Origin: Coriobacteriia bacterium
GTDB lineage: Bacteria > Actinomycetota > Coriobacteriia > Coriobacteriales > UBA8131
NCBI GenBank assembly: GCA_009783245.1
Contig: WRHL01000014.1
Coordinates: forward strand, 1 to 32,367
Reading direction: 5' to 3'
Length of the DNA stretch: 32,367 nucleotides
The position numbers were made by a program, and so were the translations under genes. Below, one piece after another: positions 11,707 through 32,367 of this stretch (position 1 is the stretch's first letter; each line of letters begins with the position of its first letter). The notes below the pieces were generated by a model. That model made no database searches. It had not been told where the DNA came from and saw only the letters and a list, made by a program, of their open reading frames with translations.

Positions 11707-13401
11707 ATGAAACCTGTAAAGACACGTCTGACAATTGTTCTCTGCGCTCTTGTTCTGCTGTTAGCAGGTTGTGCAGCTGCACAGGATCCTGGTAAAAGCA
11801 GTTCAGTGCCAGAAACGGATTCTCTCCAGGTCAGTGCTGAGCTGTTCCCCCTGTCCTCAGAATGCATCAGGTGTCATAACGATGTTTTTCCAGGTGATGG
11901 CACTCACTATTCGTTTGTTGAGGACTGGTTCAACTCTATCCATGGTCAATCCTCAGTCGACCCGCTTTTCATGGCGGTGGTTCGGCGTGAGACCCTGGAA
12001 CATCCCGATGCCTCTGATGACATCCAGGCGATCTGTGCCAGCTGCCATCTACCAATGGCTGACATGATGGCTATCGCCACAAACCAATCCCGTAGTTTCT
12101 TGGATAATGCCGCCCTTTCTGGCCATGAGCTTAACCAGCTGTACCAAGATGGTGGTTCTTGCATGTTCTGCCACCAGATCACCTCATCGCCCATCGACGG
12201 GAACACCGCTTTCCGCGATACGATAATGTCTGTCAACCTGCACCAGGCTTCTGAGGGCCAGACCCGCTACCTGTATGGTTATCACCCGAGCAGCACGATA
12301 GCCCAGCAACCGATGATACAAGCCCTGGGCTACTCCACCGAGCAAAGCTTTGTAGAACGAAACGAACGGATCTGCACTGTTTGCCACACGCTCTATACGG
12401 ATTCTTTCACGGTAGACGGTCAGCCTACTGGGATGCAGCTGCCAGAGCAGGTAGTTGCCCTGGAGTGGAAGGGATCGGATTGGGGCGATAATTCCTGCCA
12501 ATCCTGCCATATGCCACCTGTTTTAGATGCGGGGCCATTCTCTAATCAGAATGTTGCTGAAGCTACGCAGGGTAGGATCTCCCTGCACAGCTTTGTAGGC
12601 GGCAACGCATACCTTCTGCAACTTAATGGAGGTACCGATGGCTCGCTGGAAAAAGGTGTGACGGCTACAACGGAATTCCTGCAGTCTCAGACGGCAACAC
12701 TTACGCTGAACAGCAGCATTGACGAGACTTCCGGGTCAGGTCCTGTGCTTATGCTGGATGTGGCGATAGACTCTCAGGTCGGCCACAAGTTCCCCACTGG
12801 GTTTCCTTCTCGACGGGCATGGATACACGTGCAGGTGTTTGATGAGGCGGGTTTCCTGATCTATGAATCTGGCGGCTACAACGCTGAAGGCATGATCCTT
12901 GACAACAATGCTGACCTGATCAAAGGAGCATTTGAACCGCACTATTCGATCATCGACCAACCTGGTCAGGTCCAGATCTACGAGTCAGTGATGCTCGACA
13001 GTGACGGCCTGGCAACAACCAGCCTGCTTCAAGGGGTTGTCTATGGCAAGGACAACAGGATCCTCCCTATCGGGTTTGAGAAGAATGAGCAGCAGAGAGA
13101 GGGATTTGCCGGAATCGATAAGAATGACAAGTCGGGTGATGCGGCGGTTGTCGGTGAGGCAGTGGAGGATGAGGATTTTGTCCAGGGTGGCGACATCACC
13201 TACTATCGTATCAGCCTGCCAGCCGATATTGGCGCTGTGGAAGTAAGGGTCGAATTACTCTACCAATCTGTTGGTTACCGCTTTATGGAAGACCTGCTGG
13301 GCCATCCGTCGCCTGAGCAACAGATCCTGGCAGACCTTGTCAAACAGCATCCCAACCTGCCGGTGTTGGTCGCCAAACAGGAGACCAAAGTCATCAGATA
13401 G
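11707..13401 (+). CDS. Lipoprotein pentahaem c-type cytochrome
   Basis: Five CxxCH motifs: CIRCH, CASCH, CMFCH, CTVCH, CQSCH. Sec/lipobox signal 'LVLLLAGCAAAQ'. RBS 'ggaggg' 6 nt before ATG 11707. About 270-aa haem-free C-terminal domain. GC visibly lower than the surroundings. Confidence 0.7.
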   Translation: MKPVKTRLTIVLCALVLLLAGCAAAQDPGKSSSVPETDSLQVSAELFPLSSECIRCHNDVFPGDGTHYSFVEDWFNSIHGQSSVDPLFMAVVRRETLEHPDASDDIQAICASCHLPMADMMAIATNQSRSFLDNAALSGHELNQLYQDGGSCMFCHQITSSPIDGNTAFRDTIMSVNLHQASEGQTRYLYGYHPSSTIAQQPMIQALGYSTEQSFVERNERICTVCHTLYTDSFTVDGQPTGMQLPEQVVALEWKGSDWGDNSCQSCHMPPVLDAGPFSNQNVAEATQGRISLHSFVGGNAYLLQLNGGTDGSLEKGVTATTEFLQSQTATLTLNSSIDETSGSGPVLMLDVAIDSQVGHKFPTGFPSRRAWIHVQVFDEAGFLIYESGGYNAEGMILDNNADLIKGAFEPHYSIIDQPGQVQIYESVMLDSDGLATTSLLQGVVYGKDNRILPIGFEKNEQQREGFAGIDKNDKSGDAAVVGEAVEDEDFVQGGDITYYRISLPADIGAVEVRVELLYQSVGYRFMEDLLGHPSPEQQILADLVKQHPNLPVLVAKQETKVIR

Positions 13402-13410
13402 CAAGTTGAT

Positions 13411-13465
13411 TTGAGGTTAGTCGTCAAAATGACGACCAACCTCAATGGTCGGGACGACAGGATTT
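13411..13465 (-). repeat. Duplicate of the tRNA-Pro 3' end (22 nt) plus its downstream hairpin, with compensatory stem changes
   Basis: 13444-13465 'aatggtcgggacgacaggattt' is identical to 13711-13732. The hairpin 13411-13445 'ttgaggttagtcgtcaaaatgacgaccaacctcaa' parallels 13676-13712 'tttgaggttagcccccataatgggggctaacctcaaa'. Confidence 0.75.
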
Positions 13466-13603
13466 CCGATCGCTCACTTCGTTCGCGCTCTCCCACCTTC
13501 GCTCACGTTGTTCGCTCGGTCTCGCGCCTACAGGCCTGCCACAGGCAGCCCTGTTTAACGGCGCCTTGCCCTGGGGTTCGCGCAAGCGCTCCCCATTCTC
13601 ACT

Positions 13604-13628
13604 GAAAACGTGCCACTGGCACGTTTTC
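13604..13628. terminator. Perfect hairpin 'GAAAACGTGCC ACTG GCACGTTTTC', candidate bidirectional terminator / structural element
   Basis: 9-10-bp perfect stem read directly. No clean T-tract beyond the stem itself. Confidence 0.3.
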
Positions 13629-13650
13629 CTGGCGTTCGAATCCCTTCCCA

Positions 13651-13668
13651 GGTTCAAATCCTGTCGTC
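13651..13668 (+). repeat. Inverted partial copy of the tRNA-Pro T-arm / 3' acceptor ('GGTTCAAATCCTGTCGTC')
   Basis: Matches the T-arm/acceptor 3' half of the adjacent tRNA, but on the opposite strand. Confidence 0.55.
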
Positions 13669-13712
13669 TAAAGCATTTGAGGTTAGCCCCCATAATGGGG
13701 GCTAACCTCAAA

Positions 13713-13789
13713 TGGTCGGGACGACAGGATTTGAACCTGCGACATCCTGCTCCCAAAGCAGGCGCGCTACCAAGCTGCGCTACGTCCCG
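13713..13789 (-). tRNA. tRNA-Pro (anticodon TGG)
   Basis: Minus-strand sequence 'CGGGACG TA GCGC AGCTTGGTA GCGC G CCTGC TTTGGGA GCAGG ATGTC GCAGG TTCAAAT CCTGT CGTCCCG A CCA'. 7-bp acceptor, D, anticodon and T stems all pair. The anticodon loop is TT-TGG-GA. Encoded CCA end. 77 nt. Confidence 0.85.
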
Positions 13790-13883
13790 ACTCCCAAAGT
13801 ACAGCCTTGGTATTATAGCAAAGCGGGAGCTGCAGAGAAGTCCAGTTCGCGGGAAACGGAAGTCTGCCGCAATACAGGGTCAT

Positions 13884-16873: not shown

Positions 16874-18193
16874 ATGAAGAGAATCATCATTATCGGAGCA
16901 GCGGGGCGGGATTTCCACAACTTCAATACCTGTTACCGGAACAACCCGGACTATGAGGTTGTGGCGTTTACCGCGGCGCAGATACCCGATATCGCGGGAC
17001 GCAGGTACCCGGCTGAGCTGGCTGGCAGCGGATACCCGGACGGGATTCCCATTTTTCCCCAGGATGATCTGGAGAGGTTGATACGGGAGTATGGGGTGGA
17101 TGAGTGCGTCTTCTCCTACAGCGATGTGACCTACAGTTTTGTCATGGGCCTGAGTGCGCGGGTGAATGCTGCCGGGGCGTCGTTTACGCTTCTGGGGCCC
17201 GCGCAGACCATGCTGAAGAGCGAGAAACCGGTGGTTGCCATTGGGGCGATCCGGACCGGCTGCGGCAAGAGCCAGACGGCGCGAAGGGTCATCGAGTGCC
17301 TCAACAAGAGGGGCCTAAGGGTTATCGCCATACGCCACCCCATGCCCTACGGCGACCTGAACGCGCAGGCTGTACAGCGTTTTGCCTCCCTGGATGACCT
17401 ACAAAGGCACAGCTGCACCATTGAGGAGATAGAGGAGTACGAGCCGCACATCACTAGCGGTAACGTGATCTATGCAGGTGTTGACTACGAGGCGATCCTA
17501 CGGCAGGCTGAGCAGGACCCGGCTGGCTGCGATATCATCCTCTGGGATGGCGGGAACAACGACTTCCCCTTTTATGAGCCTGACTTGATGATAACGGTGG
17601 TGGACCCGCACCGGCCGGGGCATGAGCTGTCCTATTACCCGGGTGAGGTTACGTTGCGCCTGGCGGATGTGGTGGTGATCAACAAGATCGACAGCGCGGA
17701 TTACGCTGGCATCCAGACGGTCAGGGACAACATCGCCCGGATCAACCCCGGGGCTTTGGTGGTGGATGCTGCTTCCACCATCAGGGTTGACGCACCAGAG
17801 CTGGTGAAGGGCAGGCGGGTCCTGGTGGTTGAGGATGGCCCCACGCTGACGCATGGGGAGATGCAGCTGGGTGCGGGGGTTGTTGCTGCCCAGCGCTTTG
17901 GCGCTGCTGCCATTGTGGACCCGCGCGCATATGCCGTGGGCCGTCTGGCTGATACCTATAGGACTTACCCCGGCATTGGCAAGGTGTTGCCTGCTATGGG
18001 TTACGGCGAGCAGCAGGTCAGCGACCTGGCCGCGACCATAGAGGCCACCCCCTGCGACACGGTTGTCATTGCAACTCCCATCGACCTGAGCAGGATCATC
18101 AGCATTGACAAGCCCCATACCCGGGTGAGTTATGACCTGCAGGAGATAGGGGCCCCTGACCTGGGCAGCATCCTGGACGAGTTTCTAGTATGA
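16874..18193 (+). CDS. P-loop NTPase resembling cyclic 2,3-diphosphoglycerate synthetase (COG2403-like)
   Basis: 439 aa. N-terminal Rossmann-like 'RIIIIGAAGRDFHNFN'. Central Walker A 'AIGAIRTGCGKSQTA'. Walker-B-like 'CDIILWDGGNND'. The size fits the cDPGS family. The assignment is from recollection of the family architecture. Confidence 0.45.
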   Translation: MKRIIIIGAAGRDFHNFNTCYRNNPDYEVVAFTAAQIPDIAGRRYPAELAGSGYPDGIPIFPQDDLERLIREYGVDECVFSYSDVTYSFVMGLSARVNAAGASFTLLGPAQTMLKSEKPVVAIGAIRTGCGKSQTARRVIECLNKRGLRVIAIRHPMPYGDLNAQAVQRFASLDDLQRHSCTIEEIEEYEPHITSGNVIYAGVDYEAILRQAEQDPAGCDIILWDGGNNDFPFYEPDLMITVVDPHRPGHELSYYPGEVTLRLADVVVINKIDSADYAGIQTVRDNIARINPGALVVDAASTIRVDAPELVKGRRVLVVEDGPTLTHGEMQLGAGVVAAQRFGAAAIVDPRAYAVGRLADTYRTYPGIGKVLPAMGYGEQQVSDLAATIEATPCDTVVIATPIDLSRIISIDKPHTRVSYDLQEIGAPDLGSILDEFLV

Positions 18194-18257
18194 CAAAGGG
18201 TATGACAAAAGGGACCGTCCCCTTTGTCATGACAAAGGGGACGGTCCCTTTTGTCAT
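18189..18257. repeat. Family-A palindromic element (two overlapping 'ATGACAAAGGG...CCCTTTTGTCAT' units). It supplies the TGA stop of the upstream gene.
   Basis: 'tatgacaaagggtatgacaaaagggaccgtcccctttgtcatgacaaaggggacggtcccttttgtcata'. 18217-18258 is a perfect palindrome. Confidence 0.85.
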
Positions 18258-18311
18258 AAAAAAGCGTAGAATCTCCCTTACGCAAATATGGGTGGGATAA
18301 GGAGTACTGCG

Positions 18312-24359: not shown

Positions 24360-24447
24360 AGTGCTTTCCCTTCCCCATCGGTATTTTACGTGCCTTTCCA
24401 AACAGCACGAGTATAGCGGATTGGCAGGGGAGTAGCATCTTCCTCAG

Positions 24448-24522
24448 GATAGAGGACGGTTCACAGGACAGAATGGGGACGGCAGAATGGGGACGGCATT
24501 ATCCTGCGAACCGTCCTCTGTC
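24448..24522. repeat. Family-A-related element with tandem 'CAGAATGGGGACGG' x2 flanked by inverted arms 'AGGACGGTTC/GAACCGTCCT'
   Basis: 'ggatagaggacggttcacaggacagaatggggacggcagaatggggacggcattatcctgcgaaccgtcctctgtccc', located between the rbr start and the tyrS stop. Confidence 0.65.
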
Positions 24523-24527
24523 CCAGC

Positions 24528-26917: not shown

Positions 26918-29119
26918 CTACCCGTTACCTGTACCAGGATCTGGGTCGGGATCCGGGTCTGGATCAGGGTCTGAATCAGGATCCGGGTCTGGATCAGGGT
27001 CAGGGGTAGGAGGCTTAGGCTTGTTCTTCTCCTCTTCCTCTTTCTTCTTAGCTTCTTCCTCGGCTTTCTTCTTAGCCTCTTCCTCTTTCTTCTTCTTGTC
27101 TGCCTCTTCCTTCTTCAGCTTGTCTTCCTCTTCCTTCTTCTTCTTTGCTTCCTCTTCTTCCTGCTTCTTCTTCTCTTCAGCAGTCAGGAAGGTTGCCTGG
27201 GGATCATAGTTAGGGCTGCTCGCCCACGTGAAGCTCTCAGCTTCGTTGTACCAAAGCGCCTCTATCATGAAATCCCGCCACACCGGGCAACAATTCATGC
27301 CACTGTTGTCTTGGATGGGTCTGGGATACTCACGGGCGCCTATCCAGACCGCGCAGGAAAGCTGTGGCGTATAGCCTACAAACCAGGAGTCCCAATAGTT
27401 CTCAGCAGTACCGGTCTTGCCGGCTGCAACCTGCCAACCAAGGTTGGCGCTGGCGCCGGTACCACCGGTCACCACGCCGGTAAGCACCTGATTGGCGGCA
27501 TAGGCAACCTCAGGTGAGACGGCCTGAACCCCGTCATCGTGGTTCTCGTGGTCATAGAGGACCTCGCCTTTATACGTGACGATCTTGGTGATGGCAGTCG
27601 GCTCATGGTGCACCCCGCCTGCAGCTAAGGTCCCAAACGCAGAGGCCATCTCCAGCGTGTTCACTCCCTCAGCGCCCAGCACAGCAGACATATAGGGCTG
27701 GATCTCAGTGGTGATGCCCATGCGATAAGCGGCGTCTATCATGGAATGCACGCCTATCTTACGGATGATTCGCGCATAGGCGGTGTTGGAAGACTGCCAG
27801 GTCGCGCTCTCCAGGGTCATCATCCCGTAGCTGCCGTTCCCATAGTTCTGCACCGGCCAGGGCGGTCCTCCATCGCCGGGGTCAATGGTGATCGGGCCCT
27901 GCCCAGAGACCTGTGTCTTTGGGGAGTACCCCTGCTCCAGAGCCGCTACCAGCGCGAAGACTTTAAAGGTCGACCCCGCCTGGCGTTGCATCTGCCAACA
28001 GGTGTTGAACTGGTCCTCATAGAAGTCCTTGCCGCCGCGCATGACCAGGATATGACCGGTATTAGGGTCTACACAACAGAGGGATACCTCAACATCATCC
28101 TCTCCGTACACATACCATAGCTGCGCCTCTTTCTCTGCACAGGCTATCTCGGCGTAGTACTGCATGTCCCGGTCGATGGTGGTGTAGACGTCCAGTCCAC
28201 CCTTGAAGATGGTGTCCGAGGAATACTCGGTCAGGAGAATGTGGCGCACATAGGAGGTGAAGTAAGGCTCCGCATAGATGCCATCGAACTTCCTGCTCTT
28301 GACATTGAGGTTCAGCTCCTCAGCCCTGTACTGTTCGCGTTCAGCATCGGTGATGTAGCCGTTGACATACATACGGTCGAGCACCATATTGCGCCGTGCC
28401 AGTGCGTTGTCGGGGTATTCGACAGGGTTGTTATAGGTGGGGTTCTGGGGGATTCCCGCAAGCAGGGCAGCCTCGGGGATCGACAGCTGCGAGGCATCTT
28501 TGGAGAAGTAATGCTGGGATGCAGATTGGATGCCCCAGGCGCCATCACCGTAGTTGATGGTGTTAAGGTACATCATCAGGATCTCCGTCTTGCCGTACTT
28601 CTCCTCAACCGCCATTGCCAGCGAAGCCTCGCGCACCTTCCGTTCCAGGGTGCTGTCGTTTGCTTCATCCATGAGGATGGTCGAGCGGACCAGCTGCTGC
28701 GTGATGGTGGAAGCGCCCTGAAGCTGACCGCCTGTCAGGTCATTGATGGCGGCGCGGGCGATGCCGTAGTAGTCAACGCCGTTATGCTCCCAGAAGCGCT
28801 CATCCTCAATGGCGATGGTGGCGTTGAACACATTGGGCGACACCTGGTCGGCAGCCACCGGCTCACGATCCAAGAGCATGATCTCGCCCAACAGTGTGCC
28901 ATCAGGCGCCCAGATCCGCGTCTTGCGCTCCAGGCTGTAGTCCTCGATATCATCGAAACCCGGCAGATCGACAAGCCAGGACTGCACCACCGCATAGGCG
29001 CCGACTGTTGAGAAGGTCAACAGCCCTACGAATACTACGACTACGAGAACAAATGCAAACGGTATAATGAGCTTTCCACGTTTTGGTTGTTGTGCTGCTC
29101 GTTTCCTGCGCGACGACAT
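26918..29119 (-). CDS. Class A penicillin-binding protein (transglycosylase + transpeptidase) with a low-complexity KE-rich and (DP)n C-terminal tail
   Basis: 733 aa. N-terminal TM 'LIIPFAFVLVVVVFVGLLTF'. GT51 motifs 'EDERFWEHNGVD' and 'GASTITQQL'. TP motifs 'STFK', 'SSN', 'KTGT'. Tail '...KKEEEEKNKPKPPTPDPDPDPDPDSDPDPDPDPDPD'. Confidence 0.8.
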   Translation of the reverse strand: MSSRRKRAAQQPKRGKLIIPFAFVLVVVVFVGLLTFSTVGAYAVVQSWLVDLPGFDDIEDYSLERKTRIWAPDGTLLGEIMLLDREPVAADQVSPNVFNATIAIEDERFWEHNGVDYYGIARAAINDLTGGQLQGASTITQQLVRSTILMDEANDSTLERKVREASLAMAVEEKYGKTEILMMYLNTINYGDGAWGIQSASQHYFSKDASQLSIPEAALLAGIPQNPTYNNPVEYPDNALARRNMVLDRMYVNGYITDAEREQYRAEELNLNVKSRKFDGIYAEPYFTSYVRHILLTEYSSDTIFKGGLDVYTTIDRDMQYYAEIACAEKEAQLWYVYGEDDVEVSLCCVDPNTGHILVMRGGKDFYEDQFNTCWQMQRQAGSTFKVFALVAALEQGYSPKTQVSGQGPITIDPGDGGPPWPVQNYGNGSYGMMTLESATWQSSNTAYARIIRKIGVHSMIDAAYRMGITTEIQPYMSAVLGAEGVNTLEMASAFGTLAAGGVHHEPTAITKIVTYKGEVLYDHENHDDGVQAVSPEVAYAANQVLTGVVTGGTGASANLGWQVAAGKTGTAENYWDSWFVGYTPQLSCAVWIGAREYPRPIQDNSGMNCCPVWRDFMIEALWYNEAESFTWASSPNYDPQATFLTAEEKKKQEEEEAKKKKEEEDKLKKEEADKKKKEEEAKKKAEEEAKKKEEEEKNKPKPPTPDPDPDPDPDSDPDPDPDPDPDPGTGNG

Positions 29120-29211: not shown

Positions 29212-32058
29212 ATGATTACCTTAGAACCTGATACTATGACGATAAATACAACTCCCGAAAAACCCGTCACAAGGCCGGAACTGCTGGCGCCCGCCGGTAG
29301 TCATGACGCCCTGCTCGCCGCCCTGAGCGCGGGCGCCGATGCCGTCTACCTGGGAGTTGAGGACTTCAACGCCCGCCGCAATGCCACAAACTTCCAGCTG
29401 GATAGGCTTACTGAGGTCTGCGACCTGGTCCACCTCGCCGGCAGGCGGCTCTACCTCACCTTGAACACGCTGGTGTTGCCGGACGAGACCGCTGAGGCGC
29501 TGGAAGTCGCACGTCAGGCTTGGTACGCTGGTGTCGACGCTGTGATTGTCTCCGATCTGGGGCTGCTCGACCGCTTGGCTACAGAGTTGCCACAGCTTGA
29601 GTTGCACGCCTCTACCCAGATGAACCTCCACAGCGGGCCCGCCGTGCGCCAGGCTGCCCGCTTGGGCGCCTCGCGTGTCACACTGTCGCGCGAGCTTTCC
29701 TTGGAGCAGATAGCGCAGATCGCCCAGGAAGGCGTGCCGCTTGAGGTCTTCGCCCATGGCGCGCTCTGCGTCTGCTATTCTGGCCAGTGCCTGTTCTCCT
29801 CGTTGGTGGGCCGCCGCTCCGCCAACCGCGGCCTGTGCGCCCAGGCATGCCGTCTGCCCTACCGCCTCATCGACACCTCCACCGGCAAGCGCCTCAAGGC
29901 GCCCGGCGAGCACCTGCTCAGCCCCGCTGACCTCGCCACCATCGACATCCTGCCCCAGCTTGTCGCCAGCGGTATCACGTCCCTCAAGATCGAGGGCCGC
30001 ATGAAGTCAGCTGCCTATGTCGCCACTGTGACCCGCGTTTATCGTGAAGCTTTAGATGGGCCCGCTAGTGTGGAAGGGATGCCTCAGCTGACTCGCGTCC
30101 CGAAAGCCGATCATGACAAAGGGGACGGTCCGTTTTGTCATGATTGCGAGGGCCTGCAAGCCGCTCAAATCCCTCGTCATTGCGAGGAGCGAAGCAACGC
30201 GAGCGACGTGGCAATCTACGGCAGCGGTCAGGGATCAGTGGCGCTGACACAGCGAAATGACAAAGAGGGCGGAGCGCATGAGATTCTCTCGGAGACTTTC
30301 TCGCGGGGTTTCACCACCGCGTATCTTGAGGGCGACCGCACAAACAGCATGATGAGCTATGCGCGGCCCAACAACCAGGGAGTTGCAGTGGGTCGCATTG
30401 CCGCGCTGGACAAGGGGCTGGTGGCCCTTGCACTGACCAAGCGGGTCACCCAAGGCGACCTGCTTGAGATCCGCACCTCGCGAGGACGTGCCACCGTTAC
30501 GCTTGAAAACTTTTGGGCCTCTTCTGACACCAAGAAGCCTCCGCTTACTGAGGCAGCAGAAGAAACCCGTATCTGGCTGCGGATCCCCGACCCCGTAAGC
30601 CCGGGCGACCGGGTATTCCGCATCCGCAACGCCGAGCTGCAGGATGAGGCCGAGTCCCACTACAACAACACCCTCTTCCAAGGCAACAACGGCCTGGTAG
30701 ACCTTCACGCCCAGGTCACCGCCCATCTCAACCATCCCCTGACCATCACCTTCACCACAGACTGGGACGGGGCACATGACAAAGGATATGACAAAGGGGA
30801 CGGTCCCTTTTGTCATATGCTTGTCACCCCGGGCTTGACCCGCGGCCTACCGTCGCCATCGCAGGACGATAATGGCTGTCGTCCAAACGGGCTGCCTTCC
30901 CGCCAGGCCTCGCCCATCCAAGGCACTGCAAGCGGCGACCCACTCCAGCCAGCCCGCACCAAAGCCCTCACCCCAGAGGACATCCGCGAGCACGTTGGAC
31001 GCGTAGGCGGCACCCCCTTCAGCATCGCATCCTGGGACATCCAACTTGACGAGGGCGTGGGCCTTGGCTTCTCGCAGCTGCACAGCCTGCGCACCCAGGC
31101 GCTCGAGGACCTCACGGAGAACCTGCTGCAACCCTGGCGGCAACGCCGCCTCACCAAGCGCGATGACCCTCCAGCCTTAGCGCCCGCGCAGAAAGGCAAG
31201 CCACGTGTTGCCGCCATAGTGCGCGACGCGGCCAGCGCAAAGGCCGCGGTACTCGGCGGCGCGGAGCTCATCTACCTGCACTACCTCACGTTTGAGGCGG
31301 AAAGCCAGCCAGACGCCAACGGCAGCGGCGGCAACGCCAGTAGCCCCGGCGCCAGCCCCAAAAGGCTGCCGACAAAGGTGCCCATCGTAGCGCTGCTGCC
31401 CGCCATCACCCATGACAGCGAGCTACCGCCCCTGCTGGCAAGCCTCAAGAACCGCAAAGCGGCCGTCGCCAACAACCTGGCGCAGGTCGAACTGCTCGCC
31501 GACACGCTCGACAGCCTGGAAGCCGGCCCCTCGCTGGGCATTGGCAACCAGGACGCCCTCGCCCTGGCCGTCAAATGCAAACTGTCGCAGGCCTGGCTGA
31601 GCCCCGAGCTCAGCTACCAGGACATAGCGCACATCTCCCCCACCGCACCGCTGCCGCTGGCGCTGACCATTGTGGGCCGCCAGGAGCTCATGGTCACCGA
31701 GCACTGCCTGCTCATGGCCCAGGGCCCCTGCGACCAACGCTGCGCCACCTGCGCCCGCCGCAAGGCCCCGCGCCTGCTGGAAGACCGCAAAGGCTACCTC
31801 TTCCCCCTGCGCACCGACCAGGCCGGCCGCAGCCACCTCTTCAATTCCGTGCCGCTTGACCTGGTGCCCTCCATGCCGGAGATCGTCAGCCTGGGCATCT
31901 CCACCCTGGTGGTCGACGGTACGCTCATGACGACAAAAGAGTTGCGCGCGGAGGTTGAACGCGCCACGCGTGCCCGCGACCTGGCCGTCAGGGGCGCCGG
32001 CAGCCTCCCCAAGCGCGAGGGCCAGACCACCGGCCACTTCTTCCGCGGCGTGTGGTAG
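29212..32058 (+). CDS. Peptidase U32 family protein (long form with DUF3656-like and second U32-like region). Carries in-frame insertions of the dispersed repeats.
   Basis: 'RPELLAPAGSHDALLAALSAGADAVYLG', 'TQMNLHS', 'EVFAHGALCVCYSGQCLFSS' and 'KIEGRMKS' are U32 signatures. The start may instead be ATG 29236. Repeat elements at 30109-30275 and 30775-30818 are translated in frame ('HDKGDGPFCH'). Confidence 0.7.
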   Translation: MITLEPDTMTINTTPEKPVTRPELLAPAGSHDALLAALSAGADAVYLGVEDFNARRNATNFQLDRLTEVCDLVHLAGRRLYLTLNTLVLPDETAEALEVARQAWYAGVDAVIVSDLGLLDRLATELPQLELHASTQMNLHSGPAVRQAARLGASRVTLSRELSLEQIAQIAQEGVPLEVFAHGALCVCYSGQCLFSSLVGRRSANRGLCAQACRLPYRLIDTSTGKRLKAPGEHLLSPADLATIDILPQLVASGITSLKIEGRMKSAAYVATVTRVYREALDGPASVEGMPQLTRVPKADHDKGDGPFCHDCEGLQAAQIPRHCEERSNASDVAIYGSGQGSVALTQRNDKEGGAHEILSETFSRGFTTAYLEGDRTNSMMSYARPNNQGVAVGRIAALDKGLVALALTKRVTQGDLLEIRTSRGRATVTLENFWASSDTKKPPLTEAAEETRIWLRIPDPVSPGDRVFRIRNAELQDEAESHYNNTLFQGNNGLVDLHAQVTAHLNHPLTITFTTDWDGAHDKGYDKGDGPFCHMLVTPGLTRGLPSPSQDDNGCRPNGLPSRQASPIQGTASGDPLQPARTKALTPEDIREHVGRVGGTPFSIASWDIQLDEGVGLGFSQLHSLRTQALEDLTENLLQPWRQRRLTKRDDPPALAPAQKGKPRVAAIVRDAASAKAAVLGGAELIYLHYLTFEAESQPDANGSGGNASSPGASPKRLPTKVPIVALLPAITHDSELPPLLASLKNRKAAVANNLAQVELLADTLDSLEAGPSLGIGNQDALALAVKCKLSQAWLSPELSYQDIAHISPTAPLPLALTIVGRQELMVTEHCLLMAQGPCDQRCATCARRKAPRLLEDRKGYLFPLRTDQAGRSHLFNSVPLDLVPSMPEIVSLGISTLVVDGTLMTTKELRAEVERATRARDLAVRGAGSLPKREGQTTGHFFRGVW
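30109..30275. repeat. Composite family-A + family-B + partial-A repeat block, embedded in frame in the U32 CDS
   Basis: 30109-30145 is the palindrome 'gatcatgacaaaggggacggtccgttttgtcatgatt'. 30172-30222 is 'cctcgtcattgcgaggagcgaagcaacgcgagcgacgtggcaatctacgg'. 30255-30273 is 'gaaatgacaaagagggcgg'. Confidence 0.8.
30775..30818. repeat. Family-A palindromic element within the U32 CDS
   Basis: 'catgacaaaggatatgacaaaggggacggtcccttttgtcatatg'. Confidence 0.85.
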
Positions 32059-32367
32059 CACAGAAGGGGACGGTTCTATTCTGTCCCCGGTGCAGTTGAC
32101 GCACTCCCCTGCGCTTGCGCTAGAGCCTCCGTCATTGCGAGCGCAGCGCCCGATGGGCGCGCAGCGTGGCAATCTACGCAGCAGACTCTCATTGTTGGCA
32201 GTTTGTCACAGCGCATCACCTTGCAGGTTCGTAGAGAAAGAGAATCAAACGGGAGGCAATGCGCTGTGTTAGCGTCCCTCATCCCCAGCCGCTGGCGTAG
32301 ATTGCCACGTCGCCTTCGGCTCCTCGCAATGACGAGGAGGCAATGCGCCGCGTTTGCGTCCCTCATC
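32057..32367. repeat. Composite repeat array at the window end: A-like (32060-32088), B (32121-32170), C (32251-32284), B reverse-complement (32293-32337), C (32334-32367)
   Basis: B copies share 'cctcgtcattgcgagg...gcgacgtggcaatctacg' with the intragenic copy at 30172-30222. C copies share 'gaggcaatgcgc.g.gtt.gcgtccctcatc'. The two C copies are about 83 bp apart. The array is truncated by the window edge. Confidence 0.75.

Follow-up and report, generated by a model that had tools for sequence, protein, structure and literature searches.

Palindromic repeats carried in frame within two loops of a long-form U32-family gene in a Coriobacteriia bacterium

The window analyzed here comprises positions 1 to 32,367 (32,367 nt) of contig WRHL01000014.1, from assembly GCA_009783245.1 of a Coriobacteriia bacterium. 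Coriobacteriia are common gut Actinomycetota. Toward the end of the window, a gene for a long-form U32-family protein contains two blocks of palindromic repeat DNA, both of which are read in frame. A first-pass annotation had reported dispersed palindromic repeats in frame inside an intact U32 gene and likened them to Rickettsia palindromic elements (RPEs); orthologue alignment, deletion of the inserts before Pfam searching, AlphaFold2 modeling, and a second sample all agree with that claim. The gene and its inserts are laid out as follows, with the evidence in parentheses.

29212-32058, plus strand: host gene, long-form U32-family protein of 948 aa (open reading frame [ORF], Pfam, NCBI annotation, synteny)
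30111-30275, plus strand: insert block 1, a 165-nt repeat mosaic, aa 300-355, ..HDKGDGPFCHDCEGLQAAQIPRHCEERSNASDVAIYGSGQGSVALTQRNDKEGGA.. (reading frames, orthologues, predicted local distance difference test [pLDDT], Pfam deletion)
30113-30141, plus strand: first copy of the family-A palindrome, ATGACAAAGGGGACGGTCCGTTTTGTCAT (a single mismatch with the core)
30142-30175, plus strand: possible partial B-like head, GATTGCGAGGGCCTGCAAGCC..., that separates A from the complete B unit (manual reading against the B consensus TCGTCATTGCGAGGAGC)
30172-30259, plus strand: family-B unit, CCTCGTCATTGCGAGGAGC...GCGACGTGGCAATCTAC...ACACAGCG (matches to intergenic copies)
30257-30272, plus strand: A half-site ATGACAAAGAGGGCGG, earlier called A', which closes block 1 (14/16 bases equal the left half of A)
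30776-30908, plus strand: insert block 2, a mosaic, about aa 522-566, HDKGYDKGDGPFCHMLVTPGLTRGLPSPSQDDNGCRPNGLPSRQ (reading frames, pLDDT, RNA fold, Pfam deletion)
30776-30816, plus strand: A half-site (30776-30787, 12 nt) followed by family-A palindrome copy 2 (30788-30816) (exact core match)
~30821-30900, plus strand: family-C element made up of TTGTCACCCCGGGCTTGACCCGCGGCCTAC, a variable second hairpin, and TGTCGTCCAAAC (repeat matches)

The host ORF has 948 codons with no stop inside and, as judged from its sequence, would be read through at full length with both inserts. Its product scores 269 bits against Pfam PF01136 (Peptidase_U32; gathering cutoff of 22.4) and 54.7 bits against DUF3656. 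The NCBIfam scores for TrhP (207 bits, equivalog cutoff of 534) and UbiU (184 bits, equivalog cutoff of 440) fall well below their cutoffs, and TrhP/UbiU-type U32 proteins are the nearest named relatives. The host protein shares the N-terminal U32 domain and conserved cysteine residues with TrhP, UbiU-UbiV, and RlhA but differs from them as a long form (~840 aa) that also contains DUF3656 and a second domain resembling U32. NCBI annotates the gene as intact under the product name "U32 family peptidase [Coriobacteriia bacterium]" (MCL1846871.1), and PBP1A-U32 synteny is kept across orthologue loci. All residues that are invariant across 24 orthologues, including the Cys clusters, are retained. 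A search of the PDB with the U32 protein sequence matched no solved structure.

Block 1 is exactly 55 codons long (165 nt) and runs in the order family-A palindrome, partial B-like segment, full B, and A half-site. The A half-sites at its ends are direct, not inverted, and the B-like character of 30142-30175 is only weakly suggested by its sequence. Block 2 consists of an A half-site, an A palindrome, and family C; its 3' boundary is approximate (30900-30908), which puts its length at about 125-133 nt (~42-45 codons). As RNA, it folds far better than shuffled sequences (z = -4.5). Two of the six reading frames are open through block 1 and one of six through block 2, and the gene uses an open frame in both blocks even though few are open, as a survivorship filter predicts. 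Family A is open in four of six frames, so the shared phase of the two A copies (..DHDKGDGPFCHD.. in copy 1 and ..HDKGYDKGDGPFCHM.. in copy 2) is unremarkable. These results refine the earlier description. Block 1 had been given as a 170-bp A+B+A' composite at 30109-30275, and its composition stands, but its size and coordinates do not (165 nt at 30111-30275). Block 2 had been given as a 44-bp A palindrome at 30775-30818; the palindrome is there, but the half-site and the family-C element, which had been missed, extend it. The two A copies do share orientation and phase as stated, but their common peptide is DKGDGPFCH rather than HDKGDGPFCH.

The blocks were placed on the protein family by alignment of 24 orthologous sequences. 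Both fall in length-variable, unconserved loops, loop 1 after YREALD and loop 2 after ..ITFTT, that insert-free orthologues span with few residues. Among 114 orthologues, the median length of loop 1 is 33 aa, compared with 78 aa here, and that of the loop-2 segment is 57 aa, compared with 110 aa here. Orthologues of the same length with conserved residues would argue against insertion; what the alignment shows is nothing conserved across either loop and orthologue loops that are short and unrelated. Both segments thus sit at variable loops, as the first-pass annotation had expected, but the second insert, of which family C is a part, measures ~42-45 aa and not 15 aa, three times longer than proposed.

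The inserts also disturb the domain models. When aa 300-355 and 522-566 (101 codons) were deleted in silico, the Peptidase_U32 match became continuous, extending from profile positions 6-197 to 6-231, and its score rose from 269 to 280.5 bits. The DUF3656 match contracted from 171 to 126 aa and gained score (54.7 to 60.9 bits); it spans 125 aa in the insert-free orthologues P0004 and P0017. Both inserts therefore interrupt family models (Peptidase_U32 and DUF3656) at variable loops and do not lie between U32 domains as had been thought. In an AlphaFold2 model (predicted template modeling score of 0.77), pLDDT is <50 and secondary structure is absent at aa 287-352 and 519-565. Values below 50 occur only across the inserts, and the flanks are mostly >80-90. 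The inserted peptides are thus predicted to be disordered, and the model, together with the variable length of the orthologue loops, supports the earlier suggestion that they are tolerated as loops. GC content at third codon positions (GC3) is 0.58 over the 101 inserted codons, whereas the remainder of the gene has 0.80 (Fisher P = 7e-6). No terminator-like sites were found inside the gene on the coding strand.

The inserts are present in a second sample. Contig L078, from a different ENA sample, is 99.86% identical to the window over 5152 nt and has both inserts, which agree base for base and contain no single nucleotide polymorphism (SNP). The two contigs differ by five SNPs in the U32 gene, of which three are at third positions and two change an amino acid.

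In this genome and related ones, the usual place of families A, B, and C is between genes or between cistrons. A repeat scan of the window located the following copies and related palindromes outside the two blocks, none of which was assigned a single strand.

18190-18258: intergenic family-A reference copy, a half-site plus two palindromes, inverted
32057-32086: related GGGGACGGTTC-type palindrome covering the final two bases of the U32 stop codon (32057-32058) and extending downstream
32128-32367: intergenic family-B copies, one on the plus strand (~32128-32225) and a tandem array on the minus strand (32250-32367)
1-110: group of related GGACAGAAGGGGACG palindromes in the intergenic sequence that opens the window
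24447-24523: GGACGGT-type inverted repeat in the intergenic interval that separates the rubrerythrin gene from tyrS

Family A is a 29-nt imperfect palindrome with a 13-bp stem that includes one G-T pair. Its 27-nt core, TGACAAAGGGGACGGTCCCTTTTGTCA, is found at 30114-30140 (one mismatch), at 30789-30815 (no mismatches), and twice in the inverted doublet at 18203-18256; dinucleotide-preserving shuffles predict 0.00 matches in the 32-kb window for these four occurrences. The zero-spaced inverted doublet occupies 18201-18258. Copy 1 and the intergenic copy at 18202-18232 are complementary at 97%, and the variant found as copy 1 is also present in L081 (6191-6217). The half-site and palindrome of block 2 are 90% identical to the intergenic unit at 18190-18230, and this layout recurs in L079, L081, L083, and L088. 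The A doublets of L081, L083, and L088 are inverted with 74 nt from start to start; those of L081 are located between argJ, argB, and argD. Extra TGACAAAGGG half-sites accompany A doublets in the metagenome loci, and in the doublets GGTAG sits ~10 nt outside the palindrome. The exact A 25-mer was found in 11 metagenome loci (10 from one sample), and viral-contig scans returned no matches to family A. The ORF upstream of the intergenic reference copy (16874-18193, 439 aa, no Pfam match) takes its TGA stop from inside the first half-site (window 18188-18193), and the repeat may thus have reset the C terminus of that gene.

Three leads on family A were discarded. A gene flanked by A doublets was considered as a candidate transposase, but the flanked ORF is argB, an ordinary intercistronic placement. 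A copies within long stop-to-stop ORFs of metagenome loci were rejected as in-frame insertions, since they lie at gene ends or in noncoding clusters. A scan of the genome collection with the 17-mer GACAAAGGGGACGGTCC was set aside; about half of its 70 loci are coincidental carB coding matches, a contaminant of such scans for A. On the other strand, this 17-mer codes for the conserved carbamoyl-phosphate synthase motif RTVPFVSK of many phyla, including archaea (many of the loci L010-L076), and by our own arithmetic ~70 matches are expected by chance in 596 Gb. Matches that resemble real repeats came only from Atopobiaceae, Coriobacteriaceae, Collinsella, and a few metagenome-assembled genomes (MAGs) of Firmicutes and Propionibacteriaceae.

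In family B, ATTGC/GCAAT arms enclose an inner GC hairpin that varies, and five of seven copies end in ...GGCAATCTAC, the terminal CTAC being GTAG on the other strand. GTAG is the tag of classical repetitive extragenic palindromic (REP) sequences; bacterial interspersed mosaic elements (BIMEs) are associated with Gilson. The B unit of block 1 matches window positions 32257-32337 on the minus strand with 77-81% identity over 83-88 nt and E about 1e-11 (one alignment covers 83 nt with 81% identity and E = 7e-11), and the window repeat scan aligned it to this inverted intergenic copy over 57 nt at 82%. Further matches lie in L079 (938-1014, 79% over 80 nt) and L006 (7049-7098). The minus-strand array that contains the intergenic copy is head to tail with an 84-nt period and continues past the window end.

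The core hairpin of family C is CCCCGGG-CTTGA-CCCGGGG. Six of nine full hairpins end in ...GGGGCCTAC or ...GGGGTCTAC, and the others end in CTAG or CTAT. The C element of block 2 has six matches in L081 and further ones in L079 and L086, of which the strongest is 86% over 65 nt (E = 8e-16), and its junction with A is found again in L086. A-C and A-B juxtapositions were found repeatedly across loci. From copy to copy, B's inner hairpins and C's second hairpin change in sequence yet keep their pairing. At gathering thresholds, Rfam matched only a tRNA-Pro over the window and has no family for A, B, or C.

Two side observations concern these families. The C core hairpin GTCACCCCGGGCTTGACCCGGGG (window 30822-30844) is exact in 18 IMG/VR stretches (L092-L109), nearly all of which have 62-72% GC and one of which has 49%. 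In 4 of the 18 (L097, L100, L103, and L104), a 99-aa GIY-YIG ORF (PF01541, E = 2e-11) begins 24 nt downstream of the core. No GIY-YIG gene is present in the Coriobacteriia loci, and as a lead only, the adjacency may point to a mover of C hairpins. In L079, >1 kb (390-1925) consists almost entirely of A, B, and other repeat units and holds a spurious 511-aa ORF of repeat-derived peptides (DKGDGPFCH, VIASGAP.., and VILSERSESKDL). Gene callers likely annotate such repeat clusters as proteins.

Loops 1 and 2 also contain other palindromic repeats in further Coriobacteriia orthologues, whose ORFs are intact and whose PBP1A-U32 synteny is kept. Loop 2 of L003 (P0012) contains a near-perfect palindrome of ~140 nt with a GGGGACGGTTC core, which could be read as a hairpin like that of a MITE (a miniature transposable element with inverted repeats), and the whole 243-nt loop folds at -175 kcal/mol. 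Loop 1 of L005 (P0013) contains a GGGGACGGTTCCC hairpin, and loop 1 of L001 (P0008) contains B-like and C-like pieces. In L004 (P0002), a C-like hairpin (TGTCATTCCAGACTTGATCTGGAACCTAGAC) occupies loop 2 at about the same position as the C element of the window. Peptides typical of translated B-like repeats are found in P0074, P0081, P0096, P0104, and P0107. One pair of orthologues, P0104 and P0072, offers a filled and an empty site, being 91% identical with a single clean 18-aa indel in loop 2. As DNA (L090 versus L091, encoding P0058), the filled/empty pair differs by a 54-nt insertion, TGTCATCCTGGGCGG...GTCGAAGGATCC (TGTCATCCTGGGCGGAACGCGCAGCGCGCGGTCGAAGGATCC...). Separately, P0096 and P0081 are 92% identical and differ by a 60-aa GVQSGAQS-type tandem repeat expansion beside a translated B-like unit (FVASEAKQS), so that loop 2 also grows by tandem repeat expansion.

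We favor, with a probability of about 0.8, the reading that selfish REP/BIME-like repeats survive in two permissive loops of an intact U32 gene because only in-frame copies are tolerated there. Such selfish or neutral repeats would spread by the copying of short single-stranded hairpins, and copies would land anywhere in the genome. Within essential or useful genes, only copies that fall in a permissive loop, keep an open frame, and have a length divisible by three would escape purifying selection. A first repeat in a loop would probably seed further accretion, which would explain both the mosaics and the repeated occupancy of the two loops in Coriobacteriia orthologues. The inserted peptides are probably without function. 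From the terminal GTAG/CTAC tags of B and C, a REP-associated tyrosine transposase (RAYT) would be the likeliest candidate agent for these two families, though the assignment is tentative and somewhat doubtful; a RAYT-like single-strand transposase would also explain the missing target duplication.

Several observations weigh against this reading or limit it. No transposase, RAYT, or other mobilizing gene is among the genes of the window, family A has no terminal GTAG or CGTC tag, and no target-site duplication of ≥4 nt is evident at the filled/empty site of L090/L091. The RNA fold of block 1 as a whole is no better than that of shuffled sequence (z = -1.65). The next orthologue is only 66% identical, and no close relative of the species with an empty site was found. 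Within the species there was no empty-site allele either, the cluster at 90% identity consisting of the window contig, the second sample, and a 50-aa fragment. The insertion is thus inferred from distant orthologues and repeat identity. GC3 is already low in native sequence upstream of block 1, and the 50-codon windows with the lowest values begin at aa 262-278. The composition argument is consequently only supportive, and GC3 was rejected as proof of foreign origin. Finally, in the 24-sequence alignment, repeat-derived inserts are found only in the two loops, and other variable regions hold low-complexity or tandem expansions, so random landing plus tolerance may be an incomplete account.

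Other explanations dispense with insertion into a working gene. One is that repeat reads were threaded wrongly into the gene during assembly or binning. L078 does end at window position 32073, inside the palindrome that follows the stop codon; its breaking exactly at repeats indicates that they do disturb assembly. Still, this is the least credible of the explanations, as two assemblies from different samples agree across both inserts, the inserts are in frame with unique flanks on both sides, and orthologues from other projects show the same phenomenon. The segments could instead be native lineage-specific linkers that resemble the repeats through low complexity or because the gene was their source. 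The loops are indeed hypervariable and often of low complexity in orthologues, but the palindromes are not low-complexity, all three families are multicopy and intergenic in several genomes at 77-100% DNA identity, and unrelated viral contigs of high GC contain the C core as well, all of which makes native linkers highly improbable. That the repeats invaded a dead or dying gene, whose open frame is transient in a GC-rich genome, would fit the three repeat sites in the gene (two internal and one over the stop codon) and the ease with which dispensable DNA gathers repeats. It is very unlikely given that 948 codons stay open through blocks with so few open frames, that the invariant columns and Cys clusters are all retained, and that the Pfam score is high. 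Moreover, the second sample keeps the frame with SNPs mostly at third positions, and insert-bearing orthologues of other lineages are also intact.

A further rival is co-option, in which the hairpins or peptides are kept for use or the loops are actively targeted by the insertion machinery. The hairpins might then cause ribosome pausing or RNA processing between folding units, or the Cys/His-rich peptide (..FCHDCEG..PRHCEE..) might take part in metal or cluster binding by an Fe-S-type U32 protein. In its favor, at least eight orthologue lineages have palindromic repeats in these two loops but not in other variable regions, both A copies are oriented so that the mRNA has a G-U pair and not an A-C mismatch, and block 2 has the strong fold noted above. 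The C-like hairpin of L004 also lies at the same position with both arms changed (TTCCAGA/TCTGGAA for CCCCGGG/CCCGGGG), although each genome could carry its own C variant. Against co-option, DNA identity between in-gene and intergenic copies is 96-100%, so that what is conserved is the repeat family rather than the protein, and orthologues differ wholly in their inserted peptides. Most orthologues are insert-free with short loops, and the inserts are predicted to be disordered. We regard co-option as unlikely. A broader proposal, which we consider rather unlikely, makes the U32 loops preferred landing or retention sites for a new three-family Coriobacteriia REP/BIME-like system with two GTAG-tagged families. 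It would have been seeded by an ancestral copy and turned over across species, with hairpins kept for an action on the mRNA (pausing between folding units or processing).

The preferred reading, selfish repeats surviving in tolerant loops, describes a real event of a known kind, since in-frame REPs, RPEs, and BREs have already been published. REPs are short imperfect palindromes, mostly extragenic and often positioned over stop codons, and a minority lie wholly inside ORFs and add amino acids (PMC3733652). They occur inside genes of several proteobacteria, and recB of two Xanthomonas species is reported to carry different REPs at approximately one position (PMC3733652). PMC3184786 and PMC10969869 describe RPEs as palindromic repeats of ~100-150 nt in frame in housekeeping genes of Rickettsia (Ogata et al. 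2000), which remain intact and gain a peptide segment presumed compatible with the protein fold, and the same two sources document in-frame BRE (Bordetella), BOX/RUP, ERIC, Correia/NEMIS, and Anabaena MITEs. The remark in the first-pass annotation that such insertions are rare outside Rickettsia was therefore overstated.

Judged by their sequence, the block repeats are organized as REP/BIME mosaics. Like REPs and BIMEs, the window repeats are short stem-loop palindromes with inverted dimers, multimotif mosaics, and stop-codon overlap, and they are dispersed and mainly extragenic (including 1-110, 18190-18258, 24447-24523, and 32057-32367). The REP tag fits only in part, as B and C mostly end in CTAC and family A is untagged. 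They differ from REP/BIME in that the host is a Gram-positive Coriobacteriia MAG and that whole mosaics of 125-165 nt are translated, not single units of 20-40 nt. The limited literature searched contained no description of REPs in Coriobacteriia. With RPEs they share in-frame insertion into an intact gene, apparently also at fold-compatible loops. Each RPE, however, is a single defined element with a conserved peptide, whereas the blocks here are three-family mosaics whose peptides are by-products. Many genes are hit in Rickettsia but one gene is known to be hit in these 32 kb, and the host phylum differs (Coriobacteriia, not Rickettsiales), so the repeats are not members of the RPE family by host. 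MITEs and BREs are likewise small nonautonomous hairpin repeats with occasional in-frame ORF fusions, and the MITE size range of about 50-500 bp fits both blocks (165 and ~125-133 nt), which have no transposase domain. The window units are shorter than MITEs or BREs and combine modularly, and neither the block ends nor the L090/L091 pair showed the terminal inverted repeats and target-site duplication of MITEs.

Other repetitive sequence in the window lies apart from the U32 inserts. The 3' end of the PBP1A gene (26918-27210, minus strand) encodes a long low-complexity tail, E/K-rich and then of Pro-Asp dipeptide repeats, from tandem DNA repeats with spacings of 12-27 nt. Near the tRNA region, 72 nt (13572-13643) are 96% identical to L085 153-224, a locus that otherwise shares only family-A repeats with the window, and are probably a further dispersed repeat family. 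In the surrounding interval (13400-13800), tRNA-Pro(tgg) lies at 13713-13789 on the minus strand, with a 21-nt copy of the tRNA 3' end at 13446-13466 and an inverted T-arm-like fragment at 13646-13670. Both tRNA fragments adjoin a TTGAGGTTAG...CTAACCTCAA hairpin and resemble scars left at a tRNA att site by an integrative element.

The analysis opens no new mechanism. It extends the in-frame colonization of housekeeping genes by extragenic-type palindromes, reported earlier from Rickettsia, Xanthomonas, Pseudomonas, Bordetella, and others, to the Coriobacteriia. Translated repeats of this kind make proteins appear longer and disrupt domain models; the presence in a protein of DKGDGPFCH, MTKGTVPFV, VTPGLTRG, HCEERS.., VILSERSESKDL, or similar peptides flags translated repeat DNA and not a new domain. 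If the loops were in fact preferred sites of a Coriobacteriia repeat system, the U32 gene would hold a conserved "intragenic REP site," and the inserts would be no isolated accident. The main value of the finding lies in the recurrent use of the same two loops and in a previously undescribed three-family repeat system of the Coriobacteriia. Two loops of one protein family that repeatedly absorb repeat DNA provide a natural map of where long-form U32 enzymes permit insertion.

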